Source: Calditrichia bacterium
GTDB lineage: Bacteria; Calditrichota; Calditrichia; RBG-13-44-9
Assembly (NCBI GenBank): GCA_037381445.1
Contig: JARRQT010000006.1
Coordinates: 1 to 47,382 of the forward strand
DNA: 47,382 nt
Direction of reading: 5' to 3'
The position numbers were made by a program, and so were the translations under genes. The notes beneath the pieces were generated by a model. The model worked only from the letters and a program-made list of their open reading frames with translations. It was not told the origin of the DNA and did no database searches. Shown here one piece after another: positions 5,013 through 43,713 of this stretch (position 1 is the stretch's first letter; every line of letters begins with the position of its first letter).

Positions 5013-5252
5013 CTATTCTTTTTTGTCGGACTTCTCGGATTTTGCAGAGTTGCTGGTATCCGAAAAATGTTTTTTACGGTAATCAGTGATGTAAAATCCA
5101 GATCCCTTGAATATCAGACCTGATCCGCCGGTGATGACCCGTTCCAGTTTTCCGCCGCAGGACGGGCATTTCTCGAGAGGAGGATCCACAATACTCTGAA
5201 AGCTTTCGAATTGCATGTTGCACTGCTTGCAATGATACGTATACGTTGGCAC
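5013..5252 (-). CDS. FmdB-family zinc ribbon protein
   Basis: MPTYTYHCKQC...CPSCGG...GLIFKGSGFYITDY; GTG start with a GGAG RBS. Confidence 0.92.
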   Translation of the reverse strand: MPTYTYHCKQCNMQFESFQSIVDPPLEKCPSCGGKLERVITGGSGLIFKGSGFYITDYRKKHFSDTSNSAKSEKSDKKE

Positions 5253-6606: not shown

Positions 6607-7581
6607 TCAGGACAGAATGCTGCAAATGGCCGCGACATTCACAATGTCATCCACGCTGCACCCCCGCGAGAGGTCGTTGTAGGGTCTTGCCAGTCCCTGA
6701 ATAACCGGTCCCACCGCTTCCGCCCCGGCAAGACGCTGAACAAGCTTATATCCGATGTTTCCCGCATTCAGGTCCGGGAAAACAAACACATTTGCATCAC
6801 CGGCTACCGGCGAACCCGGCGCTTTGCGTTTTCCGATCTCCGGAATGAATGCAGCATCGAACTGCAGTTCACCGTCAACCTTTAATTCAGGGGCAGTTTT
6901 TTTGATGATTTCCGTTGCCTCAATGACCTTGTCCGCCAGAGGATGTTTGGCGCTGCCTTTGGTTGAAAATGAGAGCATCGCGACTCGTGGTTCAGTGCCA
7001 GCAAGTCTCCGGTGGGTATTTGCCGAGCTGATGGCAATGCTGGCAAGCTGCGGGGGATCGGGATCAGGAATGACCGCGCAATCCGCGAAGGTCAAGATAT
7101 CATTATTTGGTACTACCATTAAAAAACAGCTGGAGACCACATTGACCTTCGGCATTAATCCGACAATCTGAATTGCGGCCCGTAAAACATCACCTGTGGT
7201 GTTGACCGAGCCTGCCACCGCGCCGGCAGCCAAGTTTTCATGAAGCATCATGGCACCGTAATAGAGCGGATTTTCCATGCTTTTTCTGGCCGCGTCTTCG
7301 GTGAGCCCTTTGTGCTTCCTCAGTTCAAAATATTTATTGCTGAAGTCATTAAAATCCGGTTGACGGGCCGGCTCATAAATTTTTGCTTGCGACAAATTGA
7401 CATTCAATGCATCCGCTTTTTCCTGAATGGCATCAGCATTTCCCAAAAGAATGGGATTGGCGATTTTTTCTGAAATTAATATGTGGGCTGCTTTGATTAC
7501 CCGGCCTTCTGTGCCTTCCGGTAAGACGATTGATTTAAGGTTTTGCTGTGCCTGAGTGCGAATTCTTTCAATTAGCTCCAT
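6607..7581 (-). CDS. pta: Phosphate acetyltransferase (short form)
   Basis: [57 protein letters not shown]. Confidence 0.96.
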
Positions 7582-7710
7582 TTCCTACTCCTTCCGCCGT
7601 AATTATTAAAATTCTTGAAGGCGTAAATTTAATAATAATTTAAATTCAATCAATAGGATTATTTTTAAAAAGGGGCAGCAGGAGGGATGAGCGGAGCAGG
7701 ACTTAAAAAT

Positions 7711-8205
7711 TTATTTTGCTCCGATTTTCCTGAGCAATTCCGCCTCCACAACCCTGGGCACAAAATTTGAGACATCTCCGCCCAAACGGGCCACTTCTTT
7801 AACAATAGTCGAGTTCAGGTAGGTATGCTTTTCATGAGGCATCATGAACACGGTGGTAATTTCGTCAGCAAGCCGGCGATTCATAAGCGCCATCTGCAGC
7901 TCATACTCGAAATCCGAAACCGCACGCAGGCCGCGGATAATAGCAACCGCTTTTTTCTCTCTGGCATAATTAACCAGTAAGCCGTCAAATCCCTCCACTG
8001 AGACGGTGCCGTTAATATTTTTCTCTTTGCAGGATTTGCGGATCAAATCTGCCCGCTCTTCCATGCTGAAAAGGGGAGATTTGGATGGATTTATTGCAAT
8101 GGTGACAATGATATGATCAAACAGCTTTAACGCCCGTTCCAGTATATCCAGATGGCCGAAAGTGATTGGATCAAAAGTCCCTGGATAAATTGCCAAACGC
8201 CTCAT
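7711..8205 (-). CDS. coaD: Phosphopantetheine adenylyltransferase
   Basis: YPGTFDPITFGHLD, IIRGLRAVSDFEYELQMALMN, STIVKEVA. Confidence 0.97.
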   Translation of the reverse strand: MRRLAIYPGTFDPITFGHLDILERALKLFDHIIVTIAINPSKSPLFSMEERADLIRKSCKEKNINGTVSVEGFDGLLVNYAREKKAVAIIRGLRAVSDFEYELQMALMNRRLADEITTVFMMPHEKHTYLNSTIVKEVARLGGDVSNFVPRVVEAELLRKIGAK

Positions 8206-8619
8206 TCTATCCCCTTTCTTCCAAAAAAAGTGATAAGAGTTCTGTCAAATTTTTTCTGGCGTATTATTTCGTAAATGTTGGTTTCCCATTCAATGGTCTG
8301 GCTCTTTTCATTTTCCAGCATGAAAATGCCGTACTCTGTCAGATTTTCAGGCAGAAAGGCAAGTGGCAACAGTTCAATTAATTTGTCCCATTTATAGGGT
8401 GGATCAGCAAATATGAGATCGAAGGGTATTTTGTTCTGGCGGAGGAAGGTCAACACATTTTTTCGGACCACCTCATACGGTTCCTGGATTCTGACATGAT
8501 CCAGGTTTTTCTTCAGCACTTTAATCGAATTGAATGAGTTGAGCTGTTGTCGGACGGATAGACTGATTTTTGGCTGAGAAAAGGTGATGTCCTTTGTACT
8601 TTCCGGCTATTATTCGCAT
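8202..8619 (-). pseudogene. rsmD: 16S rRNA m2G966 methyltransferase RsmD, internally deleted and frameshifted
   Basis: N-terminal fragment 8619-8521 reads MRIIAGKYKGHHLFSAKNQSIRPTT then goes out of frame to a stop. The C-terminal frame reads NSFNSIKVLKKNL...FDLIFADPPY. The SAM-binding LDLFAGSG segment is absent. The rsmD-coaD arrangement is canonical. Confidence 0.85.
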
Positions 8620-8637
8620 AAAATATCTGCAGGCGCC

Positions 8638-9717
8638 CTATATTGAATTATAATAGGAGAGACTTAATCTGGTTGACAGGTTTTTCCCTGAAATCGTTTG
8701 TAAATTATATGGAAAAATTGACAATTTGTTTATTCGAATCATTGGGTAGGCGGATATTATGCCGGAAATGAATTTCATAATGTTGCCTTTTTGCCCGTTT
8801 AAATTAACATAATAGAGCGTTTCTCGGTATCCATTATGATCGATGATTTTTCCCTGCTTAAAATAGGGCAATTTGACCTGGTTTTTCTGCGCCAGTCCGG
8901 TAAGTTCCTTTTTAATGTCCTTGGGTTGGATATCAACGGAGATTTTTGAGACAGGGGATGCGATCTGCCCTGAGCTAATCGGAGTGCTAAGATCAGCATA
9001 AATTAGTTGATTCCCGTCTTCATATTTGTTTTGCACCGAAACCACATGAAAAGCAAGAGCCGGGAAAGCTTTTTTAAGATCCACGGTAAATTGCGCGATT
9101 TGATCGCGGGAATCCCCCAGCACAGTTAGATTAATTTCGGTGGGAGTCATAACGATTAATGAATAATCCGCGGAAGCTGGTTTTTTGACAAAAAAATCCT
9201 GCAATTGGGTATCCAGAAAATTATTGGAAGCAACATTGGTTTGATAGACGGGCATAATTCCCTGAGAAATAGCCGGTGATTGCGAAGTGGAAGTCTCCGA
9301 TTCAGTGCCGGGCACTGCTGGTTTTTCGGCGCCGCTTTTCATGAATTGAAAGATGAAGAAAATTATGACAAGTAGTATAGCCGCCGCTGCACCAAAGATG
9401 ATATAGATTCTTTTTTGTGATGATACCGGTCCGGGATAAAAATCCTTATTCGGAGTAATGGAGCGGTCCACTGGTCTCTCCTCGGTGCGAGCCCGGGGCG
9501 CTTCCTCAAATTCGGGTAGCTCTGTTTTTGTCTCCGGTTCCCTTTCCACATCGGCGCGCGGGAAAAATGATTCCGTTGATTCGAAACTCAAATCAATATT
9601 ATTATCTATTTGAGAAGATTTTTCTTTTTTGGTGAATTCTTCTTCAATTTGTTTGACATCTTCAGCTTCGGATGCAAACGTGACAGGTGAGTCAGACTTA
9701 AAATTTATCTTAACCAT
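8638..9717 (-). CDS. Bitopic membrane protein, putative PilN/PilO-like fusion
   Basis: N-terminal MVKINF (similar to the PilN INLLP motif), acidic linker, one TM helix (IYIIFGAAAAILLVIIFFIF), then two alpha/beta segments resembling PilN (LTVLGDSRDQIAQFTVDLK) and PilO (VNLNGQKGNIMKFISGI...IRINKLSI). Confidence 0.55.
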   Translation of the reverse strand: MVKINFKSDSPVTFASEAEDVKQIEEEFTKKEKSSQIDNNIDLSFESTESFFPRADVEREPETKTELPEFEEAPRARTEERPVDRSITPNKDFYPGPVSSQKRIYIIFGAAAAILLVIIFFIFQFMKSGAEKPAVPGTESETSTSQSPAISQGIMPVYQTNVASNNFLDTQLQDFFVKKPASADYSLIVMTPTEINLTVLGDSRDQIAQFTVDLKKAFPALAFHVVSVQNKYEDGNQLIYADLSTPISSGQIASPVSKISVDIQPKDIKKELTGLAQKNQVKLPYFKQGKIIDHNGYRETLYYVNLNGQKGNIMKFISGIISAYPMIRINKLSIFPYNLQTISGKNLSTRLSLSYYNSI

Positions 9718-9739
9718 GACCTATACCCCCCTTTTTCGA

Positions 9740-10678
9740 TTAAAAAATATTGGAAACAGACTCGATCATCTGAAAAATTTGGTCATCAGAAATATCCTGA
9801 CTCCGGTTTACTATTTGATAATTTGATCCATTTTCCGCATTGAAAATCCGAACCGGCATAGGTACTTGGGCCTTAATTAAATCTAACCATTGATTCTTAA
9901 AATGAAACCCGTAAAATAGAACTGACTGAATGTCGTAAAGCGGTTTCTGCAAAACAGGTGGATGTTTAAGCTCCTCCAACAGCACATCAAAACTGGAAAG
10001 CAATTCGCCCTCATCCAACTGTTCAATCGAGTCAAAATTTGTATTATAGGGGCGGAACATATAATTAATAAAATTATTTTTATCTGAGATAATTACATCG
10101 TATCCGCGCCGCTGCCAGCCGAGTATGAGCGTCTGACCTTCCATTCCGGTATAAATTTTCCGATAAAGTTCATCAATAGTAAAACAACTGGGTGCAATAA
10201 TCTGCACATTTAATTTAGCGGTTTCGGATATCTCATTAAAAAATTCCAGCACACTTTTTCGTATTGCCACAACCAGTAATTCTCTGTAATCCGCATTGTC
10301 TGATGCGAATTCGGGCATGTATACGTGGAAATTTTCCTGAGGTTCTTCAAGGGAATTCTCCAATTCGAAAAGAGCCAGTTCCTTATAATTCTCCTTTGGA
10401 ATTGACTGATCCACCATCACCTTTTTTATCACGGTAAATCTTCCTGGCAACGTCATCCGAACGGTTCCAGGAGAAAGCTCATATCGCTGCATTAAGCCGA
10501 TAAGTTGGTTTGCAATTTGTTTGGCAGTGGTAGATTGCTGAAAATTCTGGTAATTAATAGAAACGGGCAGTGATTCACTCACTGCCCTCTGTATATTTAT
10601 TACCTGTTCTTCAACTGCTAAATCTGTCCACGTAACAAAATCTTCCTGGAAGGAAATACTGCTGGTTTCTAATGACAT
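9740..10678 (-). CDS. PilM/GspL-like cytoplasmic actin-fold protein
   Basis: VRMTLPGRFTVIKKV, ELLVVAIRKSVLEFFNEISETAKLN and LILGW match the PilM pattern; lies between the pilin-like and PilN-like genes. Confidence 0.6.
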   Translation of the reverse strand: MSLETSSISFQEDFVTWTDLAVEEQVINIQRAVSESLPVSINYQNFQQSTTAKQIANQLIGLMQRYELSPGTVRMTLPGRFTVIKKVMVDQSIPKENYKELALFELENSLEEPQENFHVYMPEFASDNADYRELLVVAIRKSVLEFFNEISETAKLNVQIIAPSCFTIDELYRKIYTGMEGQTLILGWQRRGYDVIISDKNNFINYMFRPYNTNFDSIEQLDEGELLSSFDVLLEELKHPPVLQKPLYDIQSVLFYGFHFKNQWLDLIKAQVPMPVRIFNAENGSNYQIVNRSQDISDDQIFQMIESVSNIF

Positions 10679-10687
10679 AAAACCTCG

Positions 10688-12385
10688 CTATTTTTGTTCC
10701 CAACTTTTCTCACCATCTTTAATGTAGCCGTGATTTATGTGAGTTCTTTGGAAGATTACGTATTCGGTTTGGTTTACACCTTCCAGCGCATTCAATAAAT
10801 CCTTTTCCAGTTTTTCGGAAGCAGCCCGTAGCTCCTTGGCCTCCGCGGCATCAAAACCGGCACGCATTTGCTCGAGAATGTTGCTGGCGGGCTGGAAGGT
10901 TTCCGAAATGTTAACTACCTGACGTCGGCTTCTGGACGGCAACCTTATGGCAGCGATGGCAGAATCCAGGCTCGAAAATTTGTTGTTGAAGTAATCGATC
11001 TTTTGAGAAAGATCATTTAAATCTTTATTTTCAATTCGCGTTGCCAGTGTATCCATCGGATTGAGAACTTCCTCAATGGATGGCTTCAAAACAGATAGCA
11101 TCTTTTCCTGATCGATCAATTTCACGAAAGCCTGCAATTCATTAACGTACCGATAGAAAAATATGCTTGACATATTATCCATTTCCACAAGTAATTCCTT
11201 CACCTGCAGGAGGAGATCTGTATTTCTGCGGATCAGCTCTCTGTTTTGATTCAATGCGGCCTTTGTTTTCGTGAAAACCGTATCCAATTGGTCCATTTGG
11301 CCGTATAACTGCAGATTACTGATAGGCTGCACTGTTTCCACGAATTTCTCATGAAACCTATCCAGCAAATTGGGACATTCAATTGTCAGGTGCCTGCCTC
11401 CGGTGGTATCAATAATATAAGGTTTTTGATCGTCGGGGCAAACAAACATTTTGGGATCAAAATGAATAAGAATTGAATCGGTTTCGTTCAAAGAACTCAT
11501 CGCATATCGTTTGGTCAGCATAAAATAATCGGGTGAAAGAAACTTCTCATGCAGAGAACCCAGATTTTGGCGTTCCGAAACAAGTTGGGTTTTGTTCTGT
11601 TCAATATTGGCTGTCTGAAGCGCAGCCATACTGACATTGATCCGATCGGCGAATTTCTGCAATCTGTCCGATACACTGGATATTTTTACAATATCCGTAT
11701 TTTTTATATCACCAATCAAATTGGAAATGCTGGTAGCTTCGTTTTTCCAGAACTCATTGACATTATCGAACTCACTCTGTTCAAAATAATAAGAAATTGA
11801 ATCGGTGAAGTTAATGGCTTCCAACACTGCATTCTGCAATACGTAATCGGAAACCTTGTCACGCAAATTTCTTAAAGAATCGACAAATACTTTTGTTTTG
11901 CTGAAATTGGGAAATGCCTGGCTTGAATCAATCTTGTTCATCTCGCGCATGATCTGGTTTGACTCATCAAAAATATTCTGATATTTCCGGAAGTACCGGT
12001 CATTTCCCATCAAATCGCCGGTAATTTCATCGGTAGCCTGAGAGATATTTGAAATGTCACCGATCGCCGGAACTCCCAGGATATTGTTAAGCACCTGTTT
12101 AAAACTCTGTGTTAATGAAACAAGGGCCTGTCGTTGCTTTAGTGCCGAATCCGCCTGAACATAATTTAGCAGATTGGTCAGTGTATCTGAATAGGCTTCA
12201 TTAGTGCGGTAATAAAAGAGTTCTGCCTCATTAATTGTATTCATATTATTTCGACAGGTATCTGTTATTTGATTTTCTTCCTTCCAAATTCTATTTGGAA
12301 TGAGGATCACCGCCACTAATAACAAGGCCATCAGAACGATGAGAATTTCCAGGATGATTGAACCTTTCGAAGCTTTCGCAGCCAT
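10688..12385 (-). CDS. Very large type IV pilin-like protein with class III signal peptide
   Basis: MAAKASKG|SIILEILIVLMALLLVAVILIP has G at -1, E at +5 and a hydrophobic helix; CRNNM...ELFYY...YS pilin alpha-N; CPxxxKPY...IECP; C-terminal HGYIKDGEKSW. Confidence 0.7.
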   Translation of the reverse strand: MAAKASKGSIILEILIVLMALLLVAVILIPNRIWKEENQITDTCRNNMNTINEAELFYYRTNEAYSDTLTNLLNYVQADSALKQRQALVSLTQSFKQVLNNILGVPAIGDISNISQATDEITGDLMGNDRYFRKYQNIFDESNQIMREMNKIDSSQAFPNFSKTKVFVDSLRNLRDKVSDYVLQNAVLEAINFTDSISYYFEQSEFDNVNEFWKNEATSISNLIGDIKNTDIVKISSVSDRLQKFADRINVSMAALQTANIEQNKTQLVSERQNLGSLHEKFLSPDYFMLTKRYAMSSLNETDSILIHFDPKMFVCPDDQKPYIIDTTGGRHLTIECPNLLDRFHEKFVETVQPISNLQLYGQMDQLDTVFTKTKAALNQNRELIRRNTDLLLQVKELLVEMDNMSSIFFYRYVNELQAFVKLIDQEKMLSVLKPSIEEVLNPMDTLATRIENKDLNDLSQKIDYFNNKFSSLDSAIAAIRLPSRSRRQVVNISETFQPASNILEQMRAGFDAAEAKELRAASEKLEKDLLNALEGVNQTEYVIFQRTHINHGYIKDGEKSWEQK

Positions 12386-12959
12386 TATTCCTCCGTCTAG
12401 TTTAAAAATTTTTCATGGCTAATTGTTTTAATCATATAAATTTAAAACCTTAAATTATTATAATAAATACTGAAAAGTGTACTAAAATAACCATAAAATG
12501 TCAATTACTTTTTGAAAATTAGAATTAGCTCAAAACCCTGCATTTTCTGCCTTTTTCGGGAATTTGGCATCTGCTGGGGACATTGTCGCCGATGCATAAA
12601 TTTTACATTTCTTTCCTGCCAAACAAATTTGATATTCATGTCCGATGGAACTTCACCCTGTTTTGATAATTAATGGAATATAAAGAGTAAGCAGATAAAA
12701 AACCATAGCGAATGATTTTGTTCCGAATCTCGCTGGGAGGCGTTGGTTTAATTTTTTGTCTATTGCAGGTAAAAATCTTGATTTAAAGGTTTTTGTCAAT
12801 TATCAATATTTATACAGATGTAATATACGGGGTTAAACTTGGGATTGTAAACCTGTCTTGCAGAAAATTGAGGACGACCTGTTTCGTTGGGAACCAGGCT
12901 TTATTATTAGAAACGCCAGATAACCGTCAGATGTGCTTTAAAACAGAAAGGAGCGGACA

Positions 12960-13805
12960 GTGTTCAAAGAAAAAGTTCTGGAGGGCAAAGTTGCTGTTAT
13001 CACCGGCGGCGGCACCGGTCTGGGAAAAGAGATCGCAAAAACTTTCGCCGCCCAGGGAGCGAAGATCGCCATAACCAGCAGAAGCATGGATCACCTCAGG
13101 GCAGGGAAAGAAGACATTCTCGGAGTGACAAAAGACATCTTTACCGTTACCTGTGATGTAAGAGAACCGGACCAGGTCCGTCACATGCGTGAAGCGGTGT
13201 TGGGGTATTTTGGAGATATTAACATTCTCGTTAACAACGCCGCCGGCAATTTTATCTATCCCGCAGAAAAAATGCCGCTGAAAGGCTGGAAATCTGTTAT
13301 TGATATAGTATTGAATGGGACATTTTATTGTTCGCAAATTCTGGGCGAACATATGATCAAACAAAATGGCGGGAATATTATAAATATTCTGGCTACCTAT
13401 GCCTGGACCGGCGGTCCGGGAACCATCCACAGCGCCAGTGCCAAAGCCGGAGTGCTTGCCATGACCCGCACACTGGCGGTGGAATGGGCAAGGTACGGAA
13501 TACGTGTCAATTCTGTTGCACCGGGGCCCTTTGACACCACCGGGGCGCGGGAAAGACTATGGCCCACCCCGGAAATCGAAAAACGACTGATTGACGAAAT
13601 TCCACTACGCAGGTTTGCCAATCCGCAGGAGGTTGCGAATGCGATTCTCTATCTGGTTTCTCCCTTCGCCGAATACATTACCGGTGAATGCCTGACCATT
13701 GACGGCGGTGAATGGTTGGGAAAAGGTCTGGGACGGGCAGTTGAAATAATCGACCGCTTTGCTGAATTGCGGGAAGCCGGGAAGAAGAACAGCCGGAACG
13801 AATGA
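12960..13805 (+). CDS. SDR-family oxidoreductase, 2,4-dienoyl-CoA reductase-like
   Basis: ITGGGTGLG, NNAAGNF, VIDIVLNGTF, HSASAKAGV, LAVEW; GTG start after AAGGAG. Confidence 0.88.
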   Translation: MFKEKVLEGKVAVITGGGTGLGKEIAKTFAAQGAKIAITSRSMDHLRAGKEDILGVTKDIFTVTCDVREPDQVRHMREAVLGYFGDINILVNNAAGNFIYPAEKMPLKGWKSVIDIVLNGTFYCSQILGEHMIKQNGGNIINILATYAWTGGPGTIHSASAKAGVLAMTRTLAVEWARYGIRVNSVAPGPFDTTGARERLWPTPEIEKRLIDEIPLRRFANPQEVANAILYLVSPFAEYITGECLTIDGGEWLGKGLGRAVEIIDRFAELREAGKKNSRNE

Positions 13806-13883
13806 AGCCGGGAAACGGAATAAAAATAAGATAAAATGGAAGGTAGCGTACCGCTTGTTCCATTATCTTGAATGTATGAAAAC

Positions 13884-13961
13884 ATGCAAATTTTATTAAT
13901 TGGTATATGGGAATCAGCATTATTCGAATAATTGACCCGGTTATCCTGACCGGGTTTTTTT
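13884..13961 (+). promoter_or_regulatory. Putative Ile/Leu leader-peptide transcription attenuator of ilvE
   Basis: Leader ORF 13884-13931 MQILLIGIWESALFE*; terminator ACCCGGT-TATCCTG-ACCGGGT plus T-run at 13935-13961; competing antiterminator at 13908-13939. Confidence 0.55.
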
Positions 13962-14000
13962 ATCTAAAAAAGCTGAAAAAATGAAATAGAAGGAGTGTTT

Positions 14001-16362: not shown

Positions 16363-17622
16363 CTAAAAGCGGAACTGGGTGGTAACAGCAAGCTCGATGC
16401 TGCGCGAACTTCTGAACCAGCGGAAGTTATGATTCAGATATCCGATATTTAGCTGCCAGTATTTCAAATCAATGCCGCTCCCTAATCCCAGGGCAAAGCC
16501 GTTGTTGCCCCCAAAGGCGGTTCCGATCCGCAGCGGGAAAACCGAAAACGGTTTATATTCTGCCCCGAAAGAAAGCCGTGGTTTGGTGAAGTTGCCCAGC
16601 GCATGATTCAATCCCTGCCGGTAAGCGGCGGTTAAAAGCAGGTTTGACTTCATTCTATATGCTGCCGAGAAACTGAATGCGCGCGGCAGCGCGGTAGTGA
16701 AACTCCCGGCGGCAACACTGGTATCATGTTCTACGGTGTTCATTGAGTCGGGACTGTTGAGCCGCAGGGTGTCCGACTGAAATTCAAACACTTTGATCTC
16801 GTTGTTTTTATTCCACCTCACAGATCCCGCAAGGTTTGTAAAGTGGAGGCCAAGGGTCCAGTCTTTCTGATATTCGGCCAGCACACCCAGGTCCAATCCA
16901 AATCCGCTGCCGCCCTCACTCCTCAATGTTTCCATGTAGCCGTTGGCAACAATAAAATCATCTGTGGTTAATAGCTGCCCGGTAGCTTTTTGGATGTTGG
17001 CATACTGAAGACCAATGATATATTTGGGAGCAATGCCGACCGAAACAAAATTGATGCGGTCGGATGTCAATGCCTTAATAGGAAAGGCGATCCCGAAATT
17101 GACCGCTGCTCCGGCCCATCCCTCGCCTTTCAGATCATCCAGGCTATATTCTCTGGAATTCACATTGCCGTAAAAAGGCAGTTCGAAAGGAGCTTTGGGC
17201 AGATTTACATAGCCGTTTCCCATTCCCGTTATGCTCAGACTGAAGGGATGCGCATAAAACGAAAAAGTTTTGAGCCCTAAAAGAAAATCTGCACGCAGTC
17301 CTTTGTCCGGGATGTGCCCAAGCAGATCGTCAATATCACCTGAGGTGAGCGAATCGCCGGTGGTGAAATAGCGGTCATATTCATTCAGGGACAGGCCGTT
17401 ATTTTGGACCATGGCATGTGCGGATAGCAATTGCATCTCAAAATTAAAACTTCTCGGTACGGCAAGGGTCGCAGGATTGCCGCTGATATATTCAGTCCCT
17501 TCGGTGATTGCAAGATTGCTCCCGGCCATACCCAGACTGCGGCCATCACCGATGGTCTGGGCCGGCAAAGCGGCCCCGCTCAAGAGAATTATAGCGAAAG
17601 CAAAAAATAAAACTCGTTTCAT
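16363..17622 (-). CDS. Outer-membrane beta-barrel protein (DUF5723/FadL-like)
   Basis: Signal peptide, GRSLGMAG...NPATL, GSGFGLDLG, LSFGAEY, PLRIG, C-terminal Phe (TQFRF). Confidence 0.7.
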   Translation of the reverse strand: MKRVLFFAFAIILLSGAALPAQTIGDGRSLGMAGSNLAITEGTEYISGNPATLAVPRSFNFEMQLLSAHAMVQNNGLSLNEYDRYFTTGDSLTSGDIDDLLGHIPDKGLRADFLLGLKTFSFYAHPFSLSITGMGNGYVNLPKAPFELPFYGNVNSREYSLDDLKGEGWAGAAVNFGIAFPIKALTSDRINFVSVGIAPKYIIGLQYANIQKATGQLLTTDDFIVANGYMETLRSEGGSGFGLDLGVLAEYQKDWTLGLHFTNLAGSVRWNKNNEIKVFEFQSDTLRLNSPDSMNTVEHDTSVAAGSFTTALPRAFSFSAAYRMKSNLLLTAAYRQGLNHALGNFTKPRLSFGAEYKPFSVFPLRIGTAFGGNNGFALGLGSGIDLKYWQLNIGYLNHNFRWFRSSRSIELAVTTQFRF

Positions 17623-17631
17623 GGTTAACTC

Positions 17632-19719
17632 CTAATTGTCATCCTTGACTAAAATACTGACCTGAAATTCACCTGATATCTCTAGAAAATCGCTTCCCTG
17701 CAGGACCACAAAATCATTGGTTTCCTCCAGATTGATAAGAAATCCGACGCGGATGGGAACGTTTTTGAATATCCTTAATTCGTCCGCATTCAACTGAAAG
17801 GTGATTTCGTTTTCTTCCGGAACCTCCACAAATCCCGTGGATGGATTGACCGCCGCCTTGTTCAGCCTGGCCGACTTAATAAATTCAAGCCGGGGATCCG
17901 TGCAAGATGTGCTGTCATAAAGGTCCTGCTGCAGAGAATCGGCGCACACGAATATTTTGACTTCACCACCCAGCGGACTGTGATTCAGCAATTTTGCTGT
18001 GAATGTTGCCGCCTGAATATCATCGCCGGCGGCATCACGGACATCCTGATCGATATCGGATTCATAAAGAGTGTCCGGATCAATCCTGATGGGATCGGGA
18101 TTTTCAATCTTAACCTTGAAAGGTGTCGCAAATGAATAATTGCCCGTTATCTCATCTCCTGCCTGCACCTGCGCCTCACCGCCATAAACAATATAACCGC
18201 TGCCTCTCAGGTTCGTGGGCAGAATATTCAGAAAGGCATCCACCTCAGGGCCCCGCAGCCGGATGATATTCTCGATATTTGACTGGAGCGGTTCATCTGA
18301 AATGTGAATGGTGGCTGAATCGGTAATGATGCCTTCGTCATTTCTGTGGAATCCGGTAATGGCAAGATTGGCCAGCAAATTTTCCATATTGATCTGGCTG
18401 AGCAACTGCACGGTTAGTTCAGCGCCCTGAAAGGTGAATCCTTTTCCAAAACCTTTGTAATCGACCAGATCTGTTTCTTCAAACGGATCGATGGTGAGGG
18501 TATCCGTTGCCAATCGTCCGGCAAACGATTGAAAGACAAGATCGGAAGTCCGGACGGTAGCCTCAAAATTATCGGAGGCTTTAACCGGAACAAAGCCGTC
18601 CGATTCTTCAGTCTCGACGTCCAATTCCATTACCAGGCTATCCAGAGTGCTGCCGGGATATTGGGAATTCTGTATCCGGTGTCCATCAAGCGGGAAGGAA
18701 TAATTTGTTGTCTGGCTTGGCGGCAGATCGAGCTGCATTGTCATGGGCTGGCCGGTTTCATCAAGAATGTCGGGAAAACTGGCAGTAATTTGTGCACCTA
18801 CCGCCAGATGATTGTCAAGCGCCAGATTGACACTGCCGCCGGCGATTTCACCGCTGATGATCTTATTTTCCTGATCTAGCTCAATACCAATATTTTTGGT
18901 AATGTATTGCGGCTCCACTTTTCCCACAATCTCGGTAACGGATAAATCAAACAGTCCCATTTTTATTTCATATCCGGCCGAATTTAACATCTCCTGGGTG
19001 ACCTGAAAGGTGGTATCCTCAGCGACCAAAAGTGTGTATTCAATCCGCAGGCGCGAATATATCCAACTGCCACCGTTTCCAATTGGCGAACTCCCGGAAG
19101 CGCTGCCGCCTGGCGGGATCATATCCGGAATATTGACTTCTGCGATTTGCGTATTGGTGGAGTCATTGAATATCCGGATGAACATGCCTTCCGGGGAAAA
19201 GCTGTTCGGTCCCAGTGTAAAGGGAAGATTATTTTCCATAGTGACACGAATTCGGCCATCCACAACTTTTACCTTCTCGAATTCGGTCGAAGAAATGGTC
19301 CTGGGTGAGGCGGCAAAAGTTGACTGGCGAATAGTGACATTCTTTCCGATACTATCATTCAAAAAGGCGAGCGTTTCGCCGACCGGGATAAATCCTGTGG
19401 TCATATTATTGAGTGAGTCGAGACGAAGGGTGTCAACTTCAAATGAGGAGGAAGACTCTTCGGCAGGAATCTTCAGGTCCGCTTCACTGATCGACTGGGG
19501 TTCCATTTCGCCATGTATATCAAGATACAGGCTGTCGCCGCGGGTGACAATGGTGCTGTCGTTTGCCAGATCCTCCTGAAAAACGATTTTTTCAGATTTC
19601 AGGGGGATGACAAAGGGGACCACCCACTTTGGCAGAACCGGTTTGTCAATGCTGCACTGCAGAAATATTGCGGATATTAAAATCAGCAAAACGGCGTGAG
19701 ATTTTGTTTTCCAATCCAT
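17632..19719 (-). CDS. Large acidic beta-rich lipoprotein, hypothetical
   Basis: Lipoprotein-type signal (hydrophobic stretch then LQC) followed by PVLPKW; beta-rich repeated segments; co-oriented upstream of the barrel gene. Confidence 0.7.
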   Translation of the reverse strand: MDWKTKSHAVLLILISAIFLQCSIDKPVLPKWVVPFVIPLKSEKIVFQEDLANDSTIVTRGDSLYLDIHGEMEPQSISEADLKIPAEESSSSFEVDTLRLDSLNNMTTGFIPVGETLAFLNDSIGKNVTIRQSTFAASPRTISSTEFEKVKVVDGRIRVTMENNLPFTLGPNSFSPEGMFIRIFNDSTNTQIAEVNIPDMIPPGGSASGSSPIGNGGSWIYSRLRIEYTLLVAEDTTFQVTQEMLNSAGYEIKMGLFDLSVTEIVGKVEPQYITKNIGIELDQENKIISGEIAGGSVNLALDNHLAVGAQITASFPDILDETGQPMTMQLDLPPSQTTNYSFPLDGHRIQNSQYPGSTLDSLVMELDVETEESDGFVPVKASDNFEATVRTSDLVFQSFAGRLATDTLTIDPFEETDLVDYKGFGKGFTFQGAELTVQLLSQINMENLLANLAITGFHRNDEGIITDSATIHISDEPLQSNIENIIRLRGPEVDAFLNILPTNLRGSGYIVYGGEAQVQAGDEITGNYSFATPFKVKIENPDPIRIDPDTLYESDIDQDVRDAAGDDIQAATFTAKLLNHSPLGGEVKIFVCADSLQQDLYDSTSCTDPRLEFIKSARLNKAAVNPSTGFVEVPEENEITFQLNADELRIFKNVPIRVGFLINLEETNDFVVLQGSDFLEISGEFQVSILVKDDN

Positions 19720-19932
19720 TGGTTTACGACTCCTTTTGATACCTTAATTATCCTGTTCCTTCTAAAGTGGTAATCGACCTTATGGGAGAATTCATGAAGA
19801 GAAAAAGCAAATTATTTTTTGAAAGCGGAGAATTCATTTATCTGGTTTAACGTAACTCAAAAGTAAATATAAAGATAAAATGGGGGATAATATTCTAGTC
19901 CGGCAGAGTGAGATTTTTGAGGATGAGATTGG

Positions 19933-19977
19933 GTTGGGGGGACAGAGGAAAAATTCGGTTCTTCCACTCCCCCCAGC
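19933..19977 (-). terminator. GC-rich hairpin just after the M23 peptidase gene
   Basis: TGGGGGGA/TCCCCCCA stem; no clear U-tract. Confidence 0.35.
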
Positions 19978-19983
19978 ACTTGT

Positions 19984-22305
19984 TTAGTTTACCCTTATCT
20001 CTCTTTGGGTAACATTGCCCGAATTGTCTGTAACTTTTATTTTAAGATGGGAATATTGGTCACCATTTTTGGCGATTTTAAGGCTGATAATATCTTCTTC
20101 CGGATCGTACTCGAAAAGATGCCATCTGTCATTTACATACACTTCGATCTGTGATTCTTTCTGAATGCCGGACATTTCATCTTTTACAACAAAGGTCAGG
20201 AAACCCTTGCGGCTCTGCAGGATGCCATTCTTAAAAGGCTGTGCGGGAAGGACGACCGGCGGGATGGTATCCTGCGCGAGAGTGAATTTTTCCATGCTGG
20301 TGACCCTTGCGGAAAAACGATGCTGCTGCTGATCATATTGGGAAGGAATGAAAACCCATTTTTTCGGAAAATCGAAGTAATAGAGTCCCAGACCGGGAGC
20401 GTTTTTCAGGGAATCCGGCACTGCTAACGCAATCCAAACACCATCATGCACGGGCTGATCGAAGGGCTGCAGATCGTAAATTTTTCCGATTCTGCAGTAG
20501 GGTTTTTCGATCGGAAGAATGTTTTCGTCGTTCTGATCTTTTTTCAGGTATACGGCAGTTTCCTCATATAGGGCATCCACCGGAAAGTCTACCTGAAACA
20601 GGCTGTCAGCGGAAATGAGTGCGTTTTTTCTGTTGGGCCGAATCACCTTTATTTCGGGCAGGGCGGATTCAAAAAATTGTGATAAAAAATCTTTCCGGAT
20701 TACGTATTCTTCAGCGGGAATATTAATGCAGTAAATGCTTTCGCTTACCGGAAACCAGTATAATGCCGGAACCTGTTCTTTCAATCCTCTGAAAATGCGG
20801 AACGGTTTGCGCTGATTTGACCGGATTGTCAATCCCACCCAATCTTTTTTGACCTGGCTCTGCAGCAGTGTCAATCCGGAATTGTCCGGCAGAGGGGAAA
20901 GACTACCGGATGGCATGATATAAAGCGGAAAGGTTGAATTACCGGATGGCGTAATACCCGTAATTCTGAAGACGGAGGTGCTCCTGTTTTCGGAATAAGG
21001 AACGGAAATCGCATATTGATAAACATTGTTATAATGCAATTCACCCATCAACCGCGTGCCCCGGGCGGGGCTCCAGTTGCCAGAATCCCTGCTGTCAACA
21101 ACGAGGCTGTCCAGTTTCCGGGAAGACTGGATTCTCAGGAAGAGGTCATTATCTATCCATCGCGACAGATCGTATTCCAGATGCGCCGGTTGGCCGCTTC
21201 TGAAATTCATATCGAAGGTCGACTGATTTCCCCAGAAATCCTCGATTTCAATTTTCAGATGATGAAGGCCTTCCTTCAACTGCCCGCAGTCCAGTATACC
21301 TCCGTTGTCGGGCGTATTCCGGTAATGGGGAAGCCGGTTACCGGGCAATTTGAAAAAGTTGTGGAAGATTCCGTCCTTTTTCCGCCACAGGGAAAAATTC
21401 TTATCCAGCTCGATGAGCGCCGTCTGCGCGTAGGAGAATGAGTCATATTGGATGGAATAAACCAGGGAATCATCCACCCACATGTGCGCTTTGTAAAAAG
21501 CAAAGCGATTTCGATAGCCGTTGGCATGGTCATAAACCTGCAGCGCCACGCCGATTTTTCCCGTAAATAGCAGCGTGTCCGGAATGTCACACTGACTCCG
21601 GCCTTTCAAATCCTGAAATACCGTATCCGGTTTCAGGTTTATCAATGAAGCATAATCGAGGGGGATGAACGCCGCATTATAGATTTTAGGCGGCACATCA
21701 TCCTTTATCACATCCCGATAAAAAGGAAGCGGATTGATGGGGTGATTTCTGGGATTACGCAGTTCGAAATGCAGATGGGGAACACCGATACCGGTTTTGC
21801 CGCTGTAGGCAATGAGCTCGCCTTTTTTCACCGGGAATTGATTGGATTTCAGATACAGGTCCACTTCATAGCGCTGCTCCCGGTTTCTGATCTCCGTAAC
21901 GTATTTTTCAAGGGCAGGCCAGAAGCGCTCCAAATGTCCATATACCACAATATTGCCGTCATGGAGTTTCAGGTAAATCGCTTTTCCGTAACCGAATGCG
22001 CCCACCCGCACCCGCATGACATACCCATCATCAATGGCGAATACCTTATAGCCGGTCCTGTTCCAGGTTTTTATATCGATTGCGGCATGATAATGCCGGG
22101 GACGGAACTCGCAGAAACTGCTGGTCATAAGCCGGCTGGCATTGGTCGGCCAGGCATAATTTTGAGCAAGCCCGCTCTGGATTTGTATAAATAAAAGAAC
22201 CAGCAGCGCAAAACCCGGTACATCTCGTAAAATAAATCTATGTGGCAAAATAAATTTCCTTTTCAAATACGAATATTTATTCAAACTGACTTTCTTCGTA
22301 GGCAT
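19984..22305 (-). CDS. M23-family metallopeptidase with C-terminal beta-sandwich extensions (true start may be downstream)
   Basis: HAAID (HxxxD), YGHL, PHLHFE, PINPL zinc-peptidase motifs. Confidence 0.87.
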   Translation of the reverse strand: MPTKKVSLNKYSYLKRKFILPHRFILRDVPGFALLVLLFIQIQSGLAQNYAWPTNASRLMTSSFCEFRPRHYHAAIDIKTWNRTGYKVFAIDDGYVMRVRVGAFGYGKAIYLKLHDGNIVVYGHLERFWPALEKYVTEIRNREQRYEVDLYLKSNQFPVKKGELIAYSGKTGIGVPHLHFELRNPRNHPINPLPFYRDVIKDDVPPKIYNAAFIPLDYASLINLKPDTVFQDLKGRSQCDIPDTLLFTGKIGVALQVYDHANGYRNRFAFYKAHMWVDDSLVYSIQYDSFSYAQTALIELDKNFSLWRKKDGIFHNFFKLPGNRLPHYRNTPDNGGILDCGQLKEGLHHLKIEIEDFWGNQSTFDMNFRSGQPAHLEYDLSRWIDNDLFLRIQSSRKLDSLVVDSRDSGNWSPARGTRLMGELHYNNVYQYAISVPYSENRSTSVFRITGITPSGNSTFPLYIMPSGSLSPLPDNSGLTLLQSQVKKDWVGLTIRSNQRKPFRIFRGLKEQVPALYWFPVSESIYCINIPAEEYVIRKDFLSQFFESALPEIKVIRPNRKNALISADSLFQVDFPVDALYEETAVYLKKDQNDENILPIEKPYCRIGKIYDLQPFDQPVHDGVWIALAVPDSLKNAPGLGLYYFDFPKKWVFIPSQYDQQQHRFSARVTSMEKFTLAQDTIPPVVLPAQPFKNGILQSRKGFLTFVVKDEMSGIQKESQIEVYVNDRWHLFEYDPEEDIISLKIAKNGDQYSHLKIKVTDNSGNVTQREIRVN

Positions 22306-40070: not shown

Positions 40071-43000
40071 CTAACGAAGCAACAACATTTTTATGATCCC
40101 GCGAAATCCGTCGGCCTGAATCCGGCAAAAGTAGGTGCCGCTGGCCAGGTTTTCGGTTTTCCATTCTATCGAGTAGTAACCCGGGGCCTGGAAGGAGTCC
40201 GCCAGGCGGCAGATCTCCTCTCCAACCAGATTATATATGATCAACGTAATATGCGAGTGGTGCGGCACAGCGTATTTGATTCTTGTGGATGGATTAAAAG
40301 GATTTGGATAATTCTGGAAAAGAACATAACGAGCGGGCATCAAATTATTCTGATCTGTAACTGAGTTGGTTGGCGCTGCGGCGTAATTTTGCTCGCTTTG
40401 GTGTGAACCGACACTCAGGTAGGTCCGGGATAGCGGGGAAAATTCCCAGCCGGCTTTTTGGGGAGTTATGGACCCTGACCAGTTATATGCAACATTGGAT
40501 TCATAGTAACCATCTTCATCTGTAATCGATCCCAGGTCAGGCCCCAGGAGCGTTACGCCTTCAATGGGATTTTGATCGGCATCGAGGATATGCCCGGAAA
40601 TGGTGAAATGGATTGAAGAAGCCATATAATCCTGCCCGGACTGATCTCCGGTCACTTGCTGATATGTAATTGAGGTCGGATCGAAAGTCCAGCCGGCCAG
40701 GAGAGGAGTAATTGTTCCGGACCAATTGTAAGGCACCAAAGCGGAATAGCTGCCCGCTTCATCGGTTACTGATTCGTCCGGAAGTCCGGTCAAAATAACA
40801 TCCGGGAGTGGCGTCTTTTCTGATTCACCAACATATCCTGATATGGTCAGCCGGATGATAGAACCGGTATAGTCCTGACTGGTCTGATCTGCGGCAACAT
40901 TTGTGTAACTGCGGGATTCCGGCGAAAACTTCCAGCCGGTTCCGGAAGGTGTGACTGTGCCCGTCCATCCCTGCGGCACGCTGGCGGAATAAAACCCCTG
41001 GGAATCTGTACTTGGATTTCCGGGAAGACCATTGAGAACAATTTCGCTGAGAGGATTATCATCTGAATCCCGAATATATCCCGAGATGGCATATATCACA
41101 GCCGAAGCAATATAATCTTGTCCGGCGCGGTTTTCCCTGATCTGGCTATAGGACAGTGAGGCCGGAGAGAAAAACCAGCCCTCCTGAGAGGGCGTGACGG
41201 TTCCAGACCAGTCAAATGGAACTATGGCAAAATAGGCTCCTTCATTATCCGTGACCGGATTTCCCGGCAAGCCGTTCATCGCCACGCCGGGGCGTGGGTT
41301 TTGGTTCAGTTCCAGTACCGCGCCTGAAATGGAATATTGATTCAGTGAGCCGGTGTAGTTCTGATCGGCCTGATCTGACTTTAAATCGGTATAGGTTCGT
41401 GATTCCGGAGAGAACTGCCAGCCGGTCCTGCCGGGAATTACCGTTCCTGACCATCCCTGGGGCACATCGGAAGAATAAAATCCCCGGGAATCTGTAGACG
41501 GATTTCCGGGCAGGCCTACGAGGACAACTTCATTGATGGGATTGCTTTCAGAATCGCGGATGTATCCGGAAATTCTATATTGCACCATAGAGGCAAGGTA
41601 ATTTTGGCCAGTGTGGTTTTCCCGAACCTGCTTGTAGGTAAGTGAGTCCGGAGAAAAGAGCCAGCCTTCCCGGGAGGGTGTAACGATACCGGACCAGTCG
41701 AATGGAACCATGGCGGAGTAGATACCCTGGGCATCCGTGACCGGATTGCCCGGCAAACCGTTCATCGCCACGCCGGGGCATGGGACCTGGTTCAGCTCCA
41801 GCACTGTACCTGAAATGGAATATTGAATCACGGACCCGGCATAATTCTGGCTGATTTGATTCGATGTAATGTTTGAGTATGTGCGAGAGACGGGGGAGAA
41901 TTGCCAGCCGGCCCCTGTTGGGGTAGCAGTGCCAGACCATCCATGGGGCACTGATGCGACGTAATAACCGGCTGCATCCGTGACGGGCGAACCGGGAAGT
42001 CCGGATACCGTAATGCCGCTTATGGGGTTGCCGGTTGAAGTCTGCACATAACCGGAAATTGAATATTGAACCACAGACCCGCTATAATTCTGGTCGTTTT
42101 GGTTCGAACTAATATTTGTGTAGGATCTGGAAGCCGGAGAAAACTGCCACCCGGCTTTCACCGGTTTTACTAATCCCGACCATTCTGCATGAATGACACC
42201 CTGGTAAAAACCATTCTGGTCAGTTTCTGGTGAACCGGGTAATCCTTCCATAATAACACTTTCAAGCGGAGTACCGTCTGCTGATATAATGTAACCGGAG
42301 AGCTCCAAATCCATGGGCAGCCATGATGCATTAAAATAGATATCGGTGTTATCACTCATCAGGCTGCACCAGGCAATTCCCAGTCCCCGTAAGCCTGCCG
42401 GGGTATATTTGGGCAAAAGGGCAGGCGGATCGTCCTGGCTCAGGGAATTTTGAGAATTATTTATTTTCGAAGGTTCGGACCAGCTTGTGGGAGCAACATA
42501 CAGGGTTTTGGAGGTCAATACAGAATTATCCGTTAGATTGAGAAATGCTGCAAAAACATCCGGAGATCCATGCAACCCCTTGACCTGAGGATACCTCTCA
42601 TCACCGTCGCTGTATGCAAGTGCATTCCCGATGTGCCAGGATTTACCGGCGTTCTCTGAATACGCATAATAAATATCCCGGTCTGTTTCCCTATAGTAGT
42701 ATTCGTAGAAAACAAAAATGGTATTTTCATTTATGACTGCAGCTTCAGGGTTTCTTTCTTCCTGTCCCGAGAAAGCGATTAGTGCTAAGTTGTTCCAACT
42801 GGATCCGCGGTCCGAAGAGGACAGTACAGCAATATTATCGTCATCACCGGTATTGAATGAAAAGGCGATTACCAAATTGTCATTTGCATAAGAAATCGAG
42901 CAGTGGAGGATACCAGGCGTGTACAAGGTTCCCATTTCCTGTGATGACCATGATTTTCCACCGTTTGTACTTCGTTTGAAAATAATCTTTGCACTGGCAC

Positions 43001-43713
43001 CCTCCAGTTGATAACAGACCAAATAAATATAAGGATTATCTGGATAGTAATTATAGTCACAGGTTATTGAAGGATAAACTTGATCATTGGGTGAGAGATC
43101 AATCGCCGTAATATTTGTATTCGAAAGGTCACGGTTAAATTTGGCAAACAAAATATCATGATCTGAACCCTGCCGGTCCTCTGTCAGTACCACTCCCAGG
43201 CTGGAATCTGATATTTGTGCGATTACCGGGTGAGAAAGTGGTGATTGGGAACTTCCGATATACAGCGATGAATCCGCAGGCCAGGTCTGCCCGTGGTCAC
43301 TGGATTTCCTGATTATGACCTTGCCTGGAGTATCTGTCCCCTCCCATTCCTCTGCAGCAAGAAACATTTCGGGAGAATTTTGATATCCGGAAAATGCTGT
43401 GATAGATGGATTCTTTTCGTGATTTGGCGAGACTGCAACCGGTATATCATCATCCCACAACCAACTTGTTTTTTCCGTCCGAACAGAAGTATGGAAGTAG
43501 TAGGAAGCAAGTCTTTCCGAAATTTTTCCATTCGGGCCTTCCGCTTGCGATGTCAATAAATTTTTTTATTTCCCCTATATTTGTGGAGGGAATATTTACG
43601 GAAATTATTTCCATCGGGTTGGATTTTGGTTTTTCGGGGATTGACTGACCATAATGAGGTTGTACAAGCACCGAGAAGAATAAAACTATTGCGATAAGCA
43701 ATGAGCGTTTCAT
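40071..43713 (-). CDS. Large secreted protein: BNR/sialidase-like propeller, 8 tandem 81-aa repeats and T9SS-type C-terminal domain; frameshifted at an A7 run
   Basis: Signal peptide MKRSLLIAIVLFFSVLVQPHYG (ATG 43713, GGAG RBS) is in a different frame from the 1161-aa ORF. Asp-boxes SSDHGQTW, STNGGKSW, SSDRGSSW, SENAGKSW. C-terminal QNYPNPFNPST...LASGTYF...KMLLLR. Confidence 0.85.
40375..42305 (-). repeat. Eight tandem 243-bp (81-aa) intragenic repeats
   Basis: Recurring ISGx...GLPGxPxTDxxGxY...WSGTVTP...GWxFSPxSxxY...QxQxY; high DNA identity at 486-bp offset (e.g. 41275 vs 41761). Confidence 0.9.

Follow-up and report, generated by a model that had tools for sequence, protein, structure and literature searches.

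A pilin, PilM-like and PilN/PilO-like gene trio conserved across Calditrichota, and its persistence in genomes without a detectable pilus motor

To our knowledge, pilins and the PilM, PilN and PilO proteins are understood solely as parts of motor-driven filament machines. What, then, might be the role of a gene set that combines these three kinds of protein and stands apart from any motor? The question is raised by a locus in a 47,382-nucleotide (nt) stretch from a Calditrichia bacterium (Calditrichota; assembly GCA_037381445.1, contig JARRQT010000006.1, positions 1 to 47,382; hereafter the window, meaning the whole stretch analysed), where three minus-strand open reading frames (ORFs) encode a pilin-like protein of 565 amino acids (aa), a PilM-like protein of 312 aa and a bitopic protein of 359 aa (Table 1). 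The original prediction for this DNA suggested that the trio may be an accessory, type IV filament-like module that serves one unusual pilin and borrows its core motor from elsewhere. Its description of the locus holds. The genes are co-oriented and tightly spaced (gaps of 9 and 22 nt), they lie upstream of rsmD-coaD, with the rsmD start 18 nt past the bitopic gene, and they are visibly AT-richer than their surroundings (40.3% G+C versus 46.5% in the remaining window; third-codon-position G+C of 0.39–0.46 versus 0.49–0.56 in six neighbour genes). The locus also stands alone as described: a Pfam scan of the 29 other large ORFs of the window found no ATPase, platform, PilP, secretin or prepilin peptidase, and those with Pfam matches are metabolic and envelope genes. 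The proposed function is another matter. The reading that we favour, and would put near an even chance, is that the trio is an ancient, vertically inherited and self-contained inner-membrane or envelope complex, derived from the alignment subcomplex of the type IV pilus, whose core role needs neither a filament nor a pilus motor.

Structural modelling predicts that the 312-aa protein is a PilM-family protein with an actin fold, as its sequence pattern had suggested. A word-indexed search gave 15 homologous clusters, and the AlphaFold2 (AF2) model built from them has a predicted local distance difference test score (pLDDT) of 89.2 and a predicted template modelling (TM) score of 0.89. When this model was compared with the Protein Data Bank (PDB) by Foldseek, the top nine rows were all PilM chains (expectation values, E, of 8.6e-18 to 1.1e-14; TM scores of 0.64–0.74). 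They include Pseudomonas aeruginosa PilM (5eox, 5eq6, 5eoy and 5eou; E from 8.6e-18 for 5eox_B to 4.6e-16, with a TM score of 0.74 for 5eou_B) and Myxococcus xanthus PilM (3jc8_Ma; E 1.1e-14, TM score 0.72), and the rows below them are FtsA, Thermus thermophilus PilM (2ych) and the cytoplasmic domains of EpsL/GspL. By sequence, the PilM-like family profile (A1) reaches M. xanthus PilM with E 4.5e-7. The window protein itself scores below the family cut-offs (24.3 bits against 27 for Pfam PilM_2, PF11104; 17.2 bits against 133 for NCBIfam TIGR01175), and all four PilM-like proteins scanned from the wider family lie above that of PilM_2 (36.5–102.7 bits). An hhalign comparison of the PilM-like profile with the canonical PilM(N) protein of the same genome was uninformative (probability 4%). 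On visual inspection, neither ISFQEDF, the first strand, nor the stretch LGWQRRG seems to resemble the phosphate motifs of ATP binding. The FtsA-FtsN pair, in which an actin-fold, membrane-associated protein binds the N-terminal peptide of a bitopic partner (7q6i, FtsA with FtsN 1–29), is a structural analogue only: PilM structures match the model better than FtsA does (E 1e-17 versus 1e-13), the periplasmic domains of the trio appear PilN/PilO-like rather than SPOR, and the gene is not part of a division cluster.

For the 359-aa bitopic protein, the model points to a PilN-like protein and a PilO-like domain in one chain with a single transmembrane helix, in keeping with the fusion that had been proposed. 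The protein has ten homologous clusters, and its AF2 model (mean pLDDT 70.5) comprises an acidic N-terminal region (residues 1–98, pLDDT below 50), one membrane helix and two well-modelled, ferredoxin-like alpha-beta-beta-alpha-beta-beta domains. In a VIA-align comparison with 48,161 chains, domain 2 aligned with PilO 2rjz_B at Z 12.1 (root mean square deviation, rmsd, 2.0 over 92 aa, model residues 264–359), with 5uvr_A at Z 10.5, with PulM 7ze0 at Z 8.1 and with EpsM 1uv7_B at Z 7.8, the PilO scores lying well over the unrelated rows, and Foldseek on the same model ranked PilO 2rjz_A first (E 6e-4, probability 1.00). These matches argue strongly for a domain of PilO/GspM type. Domain 1 aligned with XcpY/GspL 6ghu_A at Z 8.0 (rmsd 2.0 over 74 aa, model residues 167–246), with EpsL 2w7v_B at Z 7.5 and with T. 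thermophilus PilN 4bhq_B at Z 6.8, which gives moderate support to a PilN/GspL-periplasmic type. Neither Pfam, its PilN (PF05137) and PilO (PF04350) families included, nor NCBIfam matched the bitopic protein, and its profile (A2) found nothing relevant among PDB sequences; one of the four wider-family bitopic proteins scanned exceeds the T2SSM_b cut-off (26.4 against 21.7 bits).

The N-terminus of the bitopic protein points the same way. An INLLP-type peptide is the PilM-binding element of PilN, as in the solved entries 5eou and 2ych, and the window protein begins with MVKINFK, of which M1, K3, N5 and K7 are invariant in the family alignment (A2). Distant relatives begin with MAKYNLLEDDD, MINLNLLDIP or MVDINLIG, and a PilN-type motif is visible in most of the 28 bitopic proteins compared. 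Codons 1–99 (window 9420–9717) also hold a second short conserved cytoplasmic motif, IDLSFDSTESFFP in the window's family; in distant families EDDDIF or DDFF, again an acidic-aromatic motif, stands right behind the YNLL peptide.

To judge by its profile alignments, the 565-aa protein belongs, as one of the large members, to an unnamed pilin family in which the length of the middle part differs greatly. It is made up of a short basic leader ending at G8, a hydrophobic alpha1, a long family-specific middle and a conserved C-terminal part, and it has the prepilin-type motif G/SIILE noted originally, with Ser at +1, E13 at +5 and P30 at +22. In an alignment of 28 clusters, G8, P30 and W34 never vary and S9 hardly does, Cys316 and Cys337 are retained or replaced as a pair, and the C-terminus HINHGYxxxGxKSWE is nearly constant. 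The family profile (A3) aligned with M. xanthus PilA (8tj2_C, E 1e-6, query 12–69 on chain 4–61) and with GspG (5wda, E 1.1e-3); in these alignments G8/S9 therefore corresponds to the mature N-terminus, and E13 and P30 to residues E5 and P22 of pilins. The parts of a class III signal are all present: a basic leader, Gly(-1) and a hydrophobic alpha1 of ~20 residues in register. Pfam gave no N_methyl (PF07963) match and only chance-level coiled-coil matches, while residues 7–74 scored 20.2 bits against NCBIfam ComGC (cut-off 75) and 15.4 bits against GspG (cut-off 88.85). A scan of 10 proteins, the window pilin and nine wider-family members, put no Pfam or NCBIfam family above cut-off.

The family is large. 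The word-indexed search returned 86 pilin clusters, the full-length ones mostly of 561–575 aa, with a few slightly shorter or longer and 11 of 323–453 aa, and their source labels are 'hypothetical', 'ComGC' (a label derived from the N-terminus alone) or names from Calditrichota or KSB1. With an exhaustive profile search the count rose to 460 proteins (E <= 1e-3), some 40 representatives of which are full length. Many relatives of ~150–670 aa share just the first ~80 residues with the window protein, and many of these also end in CP...CP...NHGxIxxGxKSWE; members of 154 aa resemble ordinary small pilins, and their profile matches PilA and GspG in the same register. Among 189 motif-carrying members, residue +5 is E in 111, K in 74 and another residue in 4. 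A low-confidence atlas model of the window pilin (pLDDT 0.56), both ends of which align to small pilins (T2SSG, TM score 0.74), is a lead only. One partial family member (P0108) carries the source label 'Candidatus Hodarchaeales archaeon'. As every other label is bacterial (Calditrichota or KSB1), this one probably marks a binning contaminant.

Set beside the PilA, GspG and ComGC pilins, the family has in common the Gly-ending leader, the hydrophobic alpha1 and, in the window protein, E13 and P30 in register with E5 and P22; its C-terminal Cys pair, kept or lost together, is a possible counterpart of the pilin disulfide, and its shortest members are of ordinary pilin size. It differs in its C-terminus and variable middle, in the lack of an N_methyl match, in the +1 Ser of the window protein, in having E or K at +5 and in its occurrence in genomes without a prepilin peptidase. 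Large minor pilins of the GspK/PilX type lack E5.

How widely the three genes keep company was examined in 86 species genomes of the phylum, from eight families and including 53 of high quality; these genomes are related, and all counts from them are descriptive only. The pilin profile matched 80 of the 86 genomes (51 of the 53 of high quality), at one locus each. The PilM-like profile matched 58 genomes at E <= 1e-10. In 54 of them the gene is co-oriented with the pilin and comes immediately downstream of it; the remaining four cases are a contig break, a genome without a pilin match, and the genomes G043 and G044. All five genome loci found by the PilM-like profile have the order pilin, PilM-like, bitopic, rsmD, coaD, with the trio 31–59% identical to the window and the flanking genes 64–83%. 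Twelve more distant loci came from the other seven families. Eleven of them show the whole trio and then rsmD-coaD, one of these (G041) with a split PilM-like gene, and the twelfth (G043) lacks the pilin. Among the carriers of the trio is a closed genome, G006. In all relatives examined, rsmD-coaD adjoin the trio as constant neighbours. Synteny thus extensive indicates that the trio and rsmD-coaD form a conserved, vertically inherited, single-locus block throughout the phylum. The co-location that the original prediction would have required is there, and its word 'accessory' does not suit a pilin gene that is near-universal, vertically inherited, at a single locus and set in a housekeeping synteny block. 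A horizontally acquired island is ruled out by the same phylum-wide synteny.

The block extends to neighbouring uncultured lineages, which by the evidence of gene order carry it with shorter pilins of the same family. A metagenome scan with family members of ~300 aa (a 10-sequence alignment) gave 20 loci, of which the 12 of at least 4 kb were analysed and the eight shorter ones dropped. The PilM-like gene stands directly downstream of a 223–310-aa pilin in 10 of the 12, and most loci continue with a bitopic gene (N-terminus xDINLIG or MNLL), rsmD, coaD and pta; at L034 and L038 the crude ORF filter retained an opposite-strand ORF at this point of the order. Source labels include 'candidate division KSB1 bacterium', 'Calditrichota bacterium' and 'bacterium SM23_57', and a protein atlas points to Fidelibacterota clusters as a lead only. 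The earlier suggestion that the module might reach KSB1 and Marinimicrobia has therefore gained support, from the NCBI labels for KSB1 and from the Fidelibacterota lead.

The source genome does have filament machinery elsewhere. Contig C49 (26.0–39.0 kb; L014) holds a complete type IVa cluster with PilB, PilD, PilC, four pilins, a 560-aa PilM(N), PilO, a PilP-like protein, PilQ and PilT. Its PilB is interrupted by a masked or N stretch and followed by a response-regulator domain, and its prepilin peptidase is divided between ORFs of 139 and 118 aa, one match containing an in-frame TGA; the latter may be another assembly error rather than a broken gene, because the break in rsmD of the window was one (see below). 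A second filament cluster, on contig C26 (1.6–12.9 kb; L015), includes a PilC-like protein, ATPases of 620 and 414 aa and a secretin, without a peptidase, and its small N-terminally hydrophobic proteins and its 526-aa and 293-aa proteins had no Pfam match. A third, weak PilM_2 match lies on contig C25.

The trio persists in some genomes where such machinery was not detected, and it is here that the idea of a borrowed core motor loses ground. The T2SSF platform was found in 74 of the 86 genomes. Among the other 12, the pilin profile still has a match in 10. A deeper search of five platform-less genomes (G041, G045, G048, G024 and G027; 91–94% complete) revealed no T2SSF, no T2SSE above cut-off and no Peptidase_A24, Secretin or N_methyl, controls being as expected; all five match the pilin profile, and three (G048, G024 and G027) have an intact trio. 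Across the 12, the trio is intact in five genomes from five genera (the three just named, G022 and G042). The PilM-like gene is split in three others: G041, where the pilin and bitopic genes are intact, G040, where the pilin is split too, and G045, where the pilin is truncated. In G043 and G044 the PilM-like gene is intact and the pilin missing, with the bitopic gene split in G043, and the remaining two are known by a profile match only, to a pilin cut at a contig end in G023 and a full-length one in G028.

Much the same holds for the enzyme that would process a prepilin. Peptidase_A24 was found in 60 of the 86 genomes, and 24 of the 26 without it carry the pilin, which amounts to 24 of the 80 pilin-bearing genomes. 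In the single-contig genomes G082 and G065 the pilin is present, and neither Peptidase_A24 nor A24_N_bact was found; the pilin of G082, a closed genome, still reads KG/SILLE. From their ATPase size and lower platform scores, these two genomes appear to have a cluster of the C26 type as their sole filament cluster. As a hidden partner of the trio, the C26-type cluster is ruled out, being missing from the 12 platform-less genomes as well. Measured against a complete type IV filament system, in which a pilin goes with ATPase, platform, peptidase and secretin, the trio does not qualify, because ATPase, platform and peptidase are not its required company.

Selection on the trio was gauged from the ratio of non-synonymous to synonymous substitution rates (dN/dS, by Nei-Gojobori) in two platform-less pairs. 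In G041/G042 the ratios, all of them rough, are 0.10 (pilin), 0.055 (bitopic gene), 0.125 (rsmD) and 0.034 (coaD); in G043/G044, which have neither pilin nor platform, the ratio is 0.073 for the PilM-like gene, with 0.058 for coaD and 0.065 for pta. The trio genes in these pairs (0.05–0.10) thereby match the level of their housekeeping neighbours. A module 'serving one unusual pilin' is hard to reconcile with the PilM-like and PilN/O-like genes that remain in the two pilin-less genomes and with the low dN/dS of the PilM-like gene there.

Put together by analogy with the solved systems, the favoured envelope complex would work as follows. The PilM-like protein, on the cytoplasmic side, would clamp the N-terminal x-(I/Y)-N-(L/F)-(L/I) peptide of the fusion, as PilM does that of PilN, and the two periplasmic ferredoxin-like domains of the fusion would pair within one chain, as PilN and PilO do between chains. 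This membrane unit would hold the pilin-like protein by its hydrophobic alpha1. The pilin may then remain in the inner membrane and expose its large periplasmic part. Where a type IVa machine exists, as in the source genome, the pilin might be handed over to it, and this would not be the conserved function; candidates for that function are an envelope scaffold or a periplasmic receiving platform. We take the conserved role to be a non-filament one because the block is kept, with low dN/dS, where motor, platform, peptidase, secretin and ordinary pilin are absent, and also because so many family members (74 of 189) have Lys at +5. In canonical filament packing, filament-forming pilins have Glu at this position, and Lys fits poorly. 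Tentatively, and with distinctly less confidence than for the general reading, we propose a fuller version: an autonomous envelope complex of PilM clamp, single-chain PilN-PilO and membrane-retained pilin with a periplasmic domain of variable size, which lacks ATPase, platform, peptidase and secretin, has been inherited since before Calditrichota, the KSB1-labelled lineages and their relatives split, and has a conserved non-filament job, possibly as a receiving platform for DNA uptake of the ComEA/ComEC type.

Several observations weigh against this. The source genome has both a full type IVa cluster and a second filament cluster. The trio has decayed in some platform-less genomes (G040, G045, G043, G044 and G041), which is the pattern predicted by dependence on a pilus machine. 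The absences come from hidden Markov model scans of draft metagenome-assembled genomes, some of the other platform-less ones being only 52–79% complete, and the synonymous distance between G041 and G042 is saturated (dS about 2 or more), which makes their ratios rough. The invariant G(-1) and P(+22), together with E(+5) in the window protein, look as if kept for prepilin processing and assembly. Finally, all contacts among the three proteins are drawn by analogy, and the Z scores of domain 1 (6.8–8.0) fall within the range that VIA-align calls common.

The foremost alternative, which we consider unlikely though it deserves serious attention, is an accessory loading or alignment module along the lines of the original prediction: PilB, PilC, PilD and PilQ encoded elsewhere would process the giant pilin and build it into a type IVa pilus, where it might serve as a tip or minor pilin. 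The two filament clusters of the source genome would supply the machine, G(-1), E(+5) and P(+22) of the window pilin fall on their counterparts in solved pilins, the module is broken or pilin-less in four of the 12 platform-less genomes (G040, G045, G043 and G044) and has a split PilM-like gene in G041, and in all seven platform-less genomes sampled the +5 residue is K or V, never E. The last point is blunted by the fact that K at +5 is also common in machine-bearing genomes, which rules out E versus K as a marker for the machine. Nor would a loader be expected to survive intact in five platform-less genomes of five genera at a housekeeping level of dN/dS, to keep its pilin in 24 genomes without an A24 peptidase, the closed G082 with its KG/SILLE included, or to leave PilM-like and PilN/O-like genes behind without a pilin in G043 and G044, and the canonical clusters have a PilM, PilN and PilO of their own.

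A second alternative, to our mind improbable, is a competence module in which the trio acts with ComEA and ComEC to move DNA through the periplasm. It is suggested by a gene for a transmembrane segment and an HHH_3 domain (ComEA-like), which in the wider family stands directly upstream of the pilin, co-oriented, in all five loci tested (E ~1e-21 to 1e-23), by the presence of ComEA-like and ComEC genes in the source genome and in the four filament-less genomes tested, and by the N-terminus-based 'ComGC' in some source annotations of the pilin. Against it, the ComEA-like gene of the source genome lies with hrcA-grpE-dnaJ on another contig, away from the trio; comEA travels with the dnaJ block, so other lineages may have it next to the pilin by coincidence. 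Furthermore, Pfam and NCBIfam found no DNA-binding domain in the trio, the filament-less genomes have no secretin for passage through the outer membrane, and ComEC and ComEA are widespread in bacteria regardless of pilus state. As a part of the module itself, comEA is ruled out by its position with hrcA-grpE-dnaJ here.

The two arrangements of this chaperone block can be compared directly. In the wider family, ftsE-ftsX-hrcA-grpE-dnaJ-comEA-like stand directly upstream of the pilin (L031, L036, L042, L043 and L046), and by ORF pattern the ftsE-to-comEA-like block is also found at L032, L037, L038, L040 and L047. In the source genome, hrcA-grpE-dnaJ-comEA-like lie on contig C1 (56.0–60.2 kb), without the trio. 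From these differing positions it follows that the dnaJ-comEA block and the trio were separated or joined in the course of evolution.

That the genes are chance or decaying frames in an AT-rich, horizontally acquired stretch without function has next to nothing in its favour beyond a G+C content under that of the flanks and the lack of Pfam families above cut-off, and is refuted by the length of ~560–575 aa kept in nearly all full-length pilin clusters, by synteny across the phylum, by dN/dS of 0.05–0.10 and by confident structure models.

How, then, does the trio compare with systems already described? With PilM-PilN-PilO(-PilP) of P. aeruginosa, M. xanthus and T. thermophilus it shares an actin-fold PilM-like protein (5eox, 5eou, 3jc8, 2ych), a bitopic partner with an INLL-type N-terminal peptide and ferredoxin-like domains, one probably PilN-like and one PilO-like, and the gene order of M followed by N/O. 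In contrast to that system, which has two bitopic proteins, PilN and PilO of the trio appear as one chain with one transmembrane helix, ~90 acidic, poorly modelled residues separate the peptide from this helix, and the locus is without PilP, PilQ, PilB, PilC and PilD and is kept in genomes without any of them. It also differs in that the window proteins lie under the Pfam and NCBIfam cut-offs, in its fixed housekeeping neighbourhood and in its different pilin family. With GspL-GspM (EpsL/EpsM, XcpY/XcpZ, PulL/PulM) the trio shares domain 1, which resembles the periplasmic part of GspL, domain 2, which resembles GspM, and the match of the PilM-like model to EpsL/GspL cytoplasmic domains. Since GspL is itself PilM-like plus PilN-like, fusion of neighbouring platform parts is a known theme there, but the joint lies between M and N there and between N and O in the trio. 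Unlike type II secretion, the trio has no GspE, GspF, GspC, GspD or pseudopilin set, and its pilin is of 565 aa rather than the ~140 aa of GspG. A full-text literature search, with supplementary gene tables outside its coverage, found no description of the trio. A passage of the Caldithrix abyssi genome paper mentions just a 'Pili IV cluster' (PMC5317091).

Table 1. Position, strand and basis of the features of the trio locus and its immediate surroundings (window coordinates; codons counted within each gene).
Feature	Position	Strand	Description and basis
Pilin-like gene	10688..12385	-	565 aa; ORF, pilin-register profile match
Leader and alpha1, pilin codons 1-69	12179..12385	-	Class-III-signal-like; part aligning to solved pilins
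PilM-like gene	9740..10678	-	312 aa; predicted actin fold (ASKHA), cytoplasmic
PilN/PilO-fusion-like bitopic gene	8638..9717	-	359 aa; AF2 model, fold matches
PilN-type N-terminal peptide MVKINFK, bitopic codons 1-7	9697..9717	-	Pattern x-[I/Y/F]-N-[L/I/F]-[L/I]
Single transmembrane helix, bitopic codons 100-127	9337..9420	-	Predicted, AF2/DSSP
Periplasmic ferredoxin-like domain 1, PilN/GspL type, bitopic codons 155-246	8980..9255	-	VIA-align, moderate
Periplasmic ferredoxin-like domain 2, PilO/GspM type, bitopic codons 268-358	8644..8916	-	VIA-align, Foldseek
Intergenic region 5' of pilin gene, common with divergent short-chain dehydrogenase/reductase (SDR) gene	12386..12959	.	AT-rich, 32.9% G+C
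rsmD-coaD, directly downstream, co-oriented	7711..8619	-	Pfam Cons_hypoth95, CTP_transf_like

The promoter of the operon probably lies in the intergenic stretch between the pilin gene and the divergent SDR gene. This stretch contains sigma-70-like hexamers on the minus strand at 12504–12476 (TTGACA, 17 nt, TACACT), which are consensus matches only: promoter-like and terminator-like matches were no commoner than in shuffled sequence. Rfam returned nothing meaningful over 7000–14000, the 5' region of the pilin gene included.

At the other end of the trio, rsmD of the window is in two pieces in different frames (8521–8619, 32 aa; 8202–8519, 105 aa) and lacks the S-adenosylmethionine-binding middle, where RsmD of relatives has 181–194 aa. 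At exactly 8540/8541, a contig from the likely source run (X1) contains 134 additional letters, and related contigs from two other runs (X2 and X3) have 142 letters between 8537 and 8546. Because these public contigs carry the extra letters, the window assembly must have dropped 134 nt of rsmD; the gene is probably intact in the organism, and an rsmD pseudogene is ruled out by this assembly loss at 8540/8541. Further along, a 79-aa Zn_ribbon_8 protein (MPTYTYHC...) is encoded downstream of pta at 5013–5252 (minus strand). Since almost every related locus examined has a small homologous ORF after pta, this gene belongs to the same long synteny block.

Elsewhere in the window, a 1161-aa protein (40071–43556, minus strand) with BNR and CarboxypepD_reg matches and a C-terminal Por_Secre_tail is, from these domains, likely a cargo of type IX secretion. 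The minus-strand genes at 16363–22305 encode envelope proteins: a 419-aa DUF5723/TraF_2-like protein, a 695-aa protein without a family and a 773-aa protein with a Peptidase_M23 fragment. A non-ribosomal-peptide-synthetase-like protein with AMP-binding, PP-binding and Condensation domains occupies 44625–47381 (plus strand) and runs past the window end.

If the favoured reading is true, the pilin, PilM and PilN/O folds would have a filament-independent role in these bacteria, and a large unnamed pilin family would be defined whose members share both ends while the middle ranges from almost nothing to ~500 residues. Hundreds of 'hypothetical proteins' would gain names, and genome scans that count pilins or PilM as proof of pili would over-call them.

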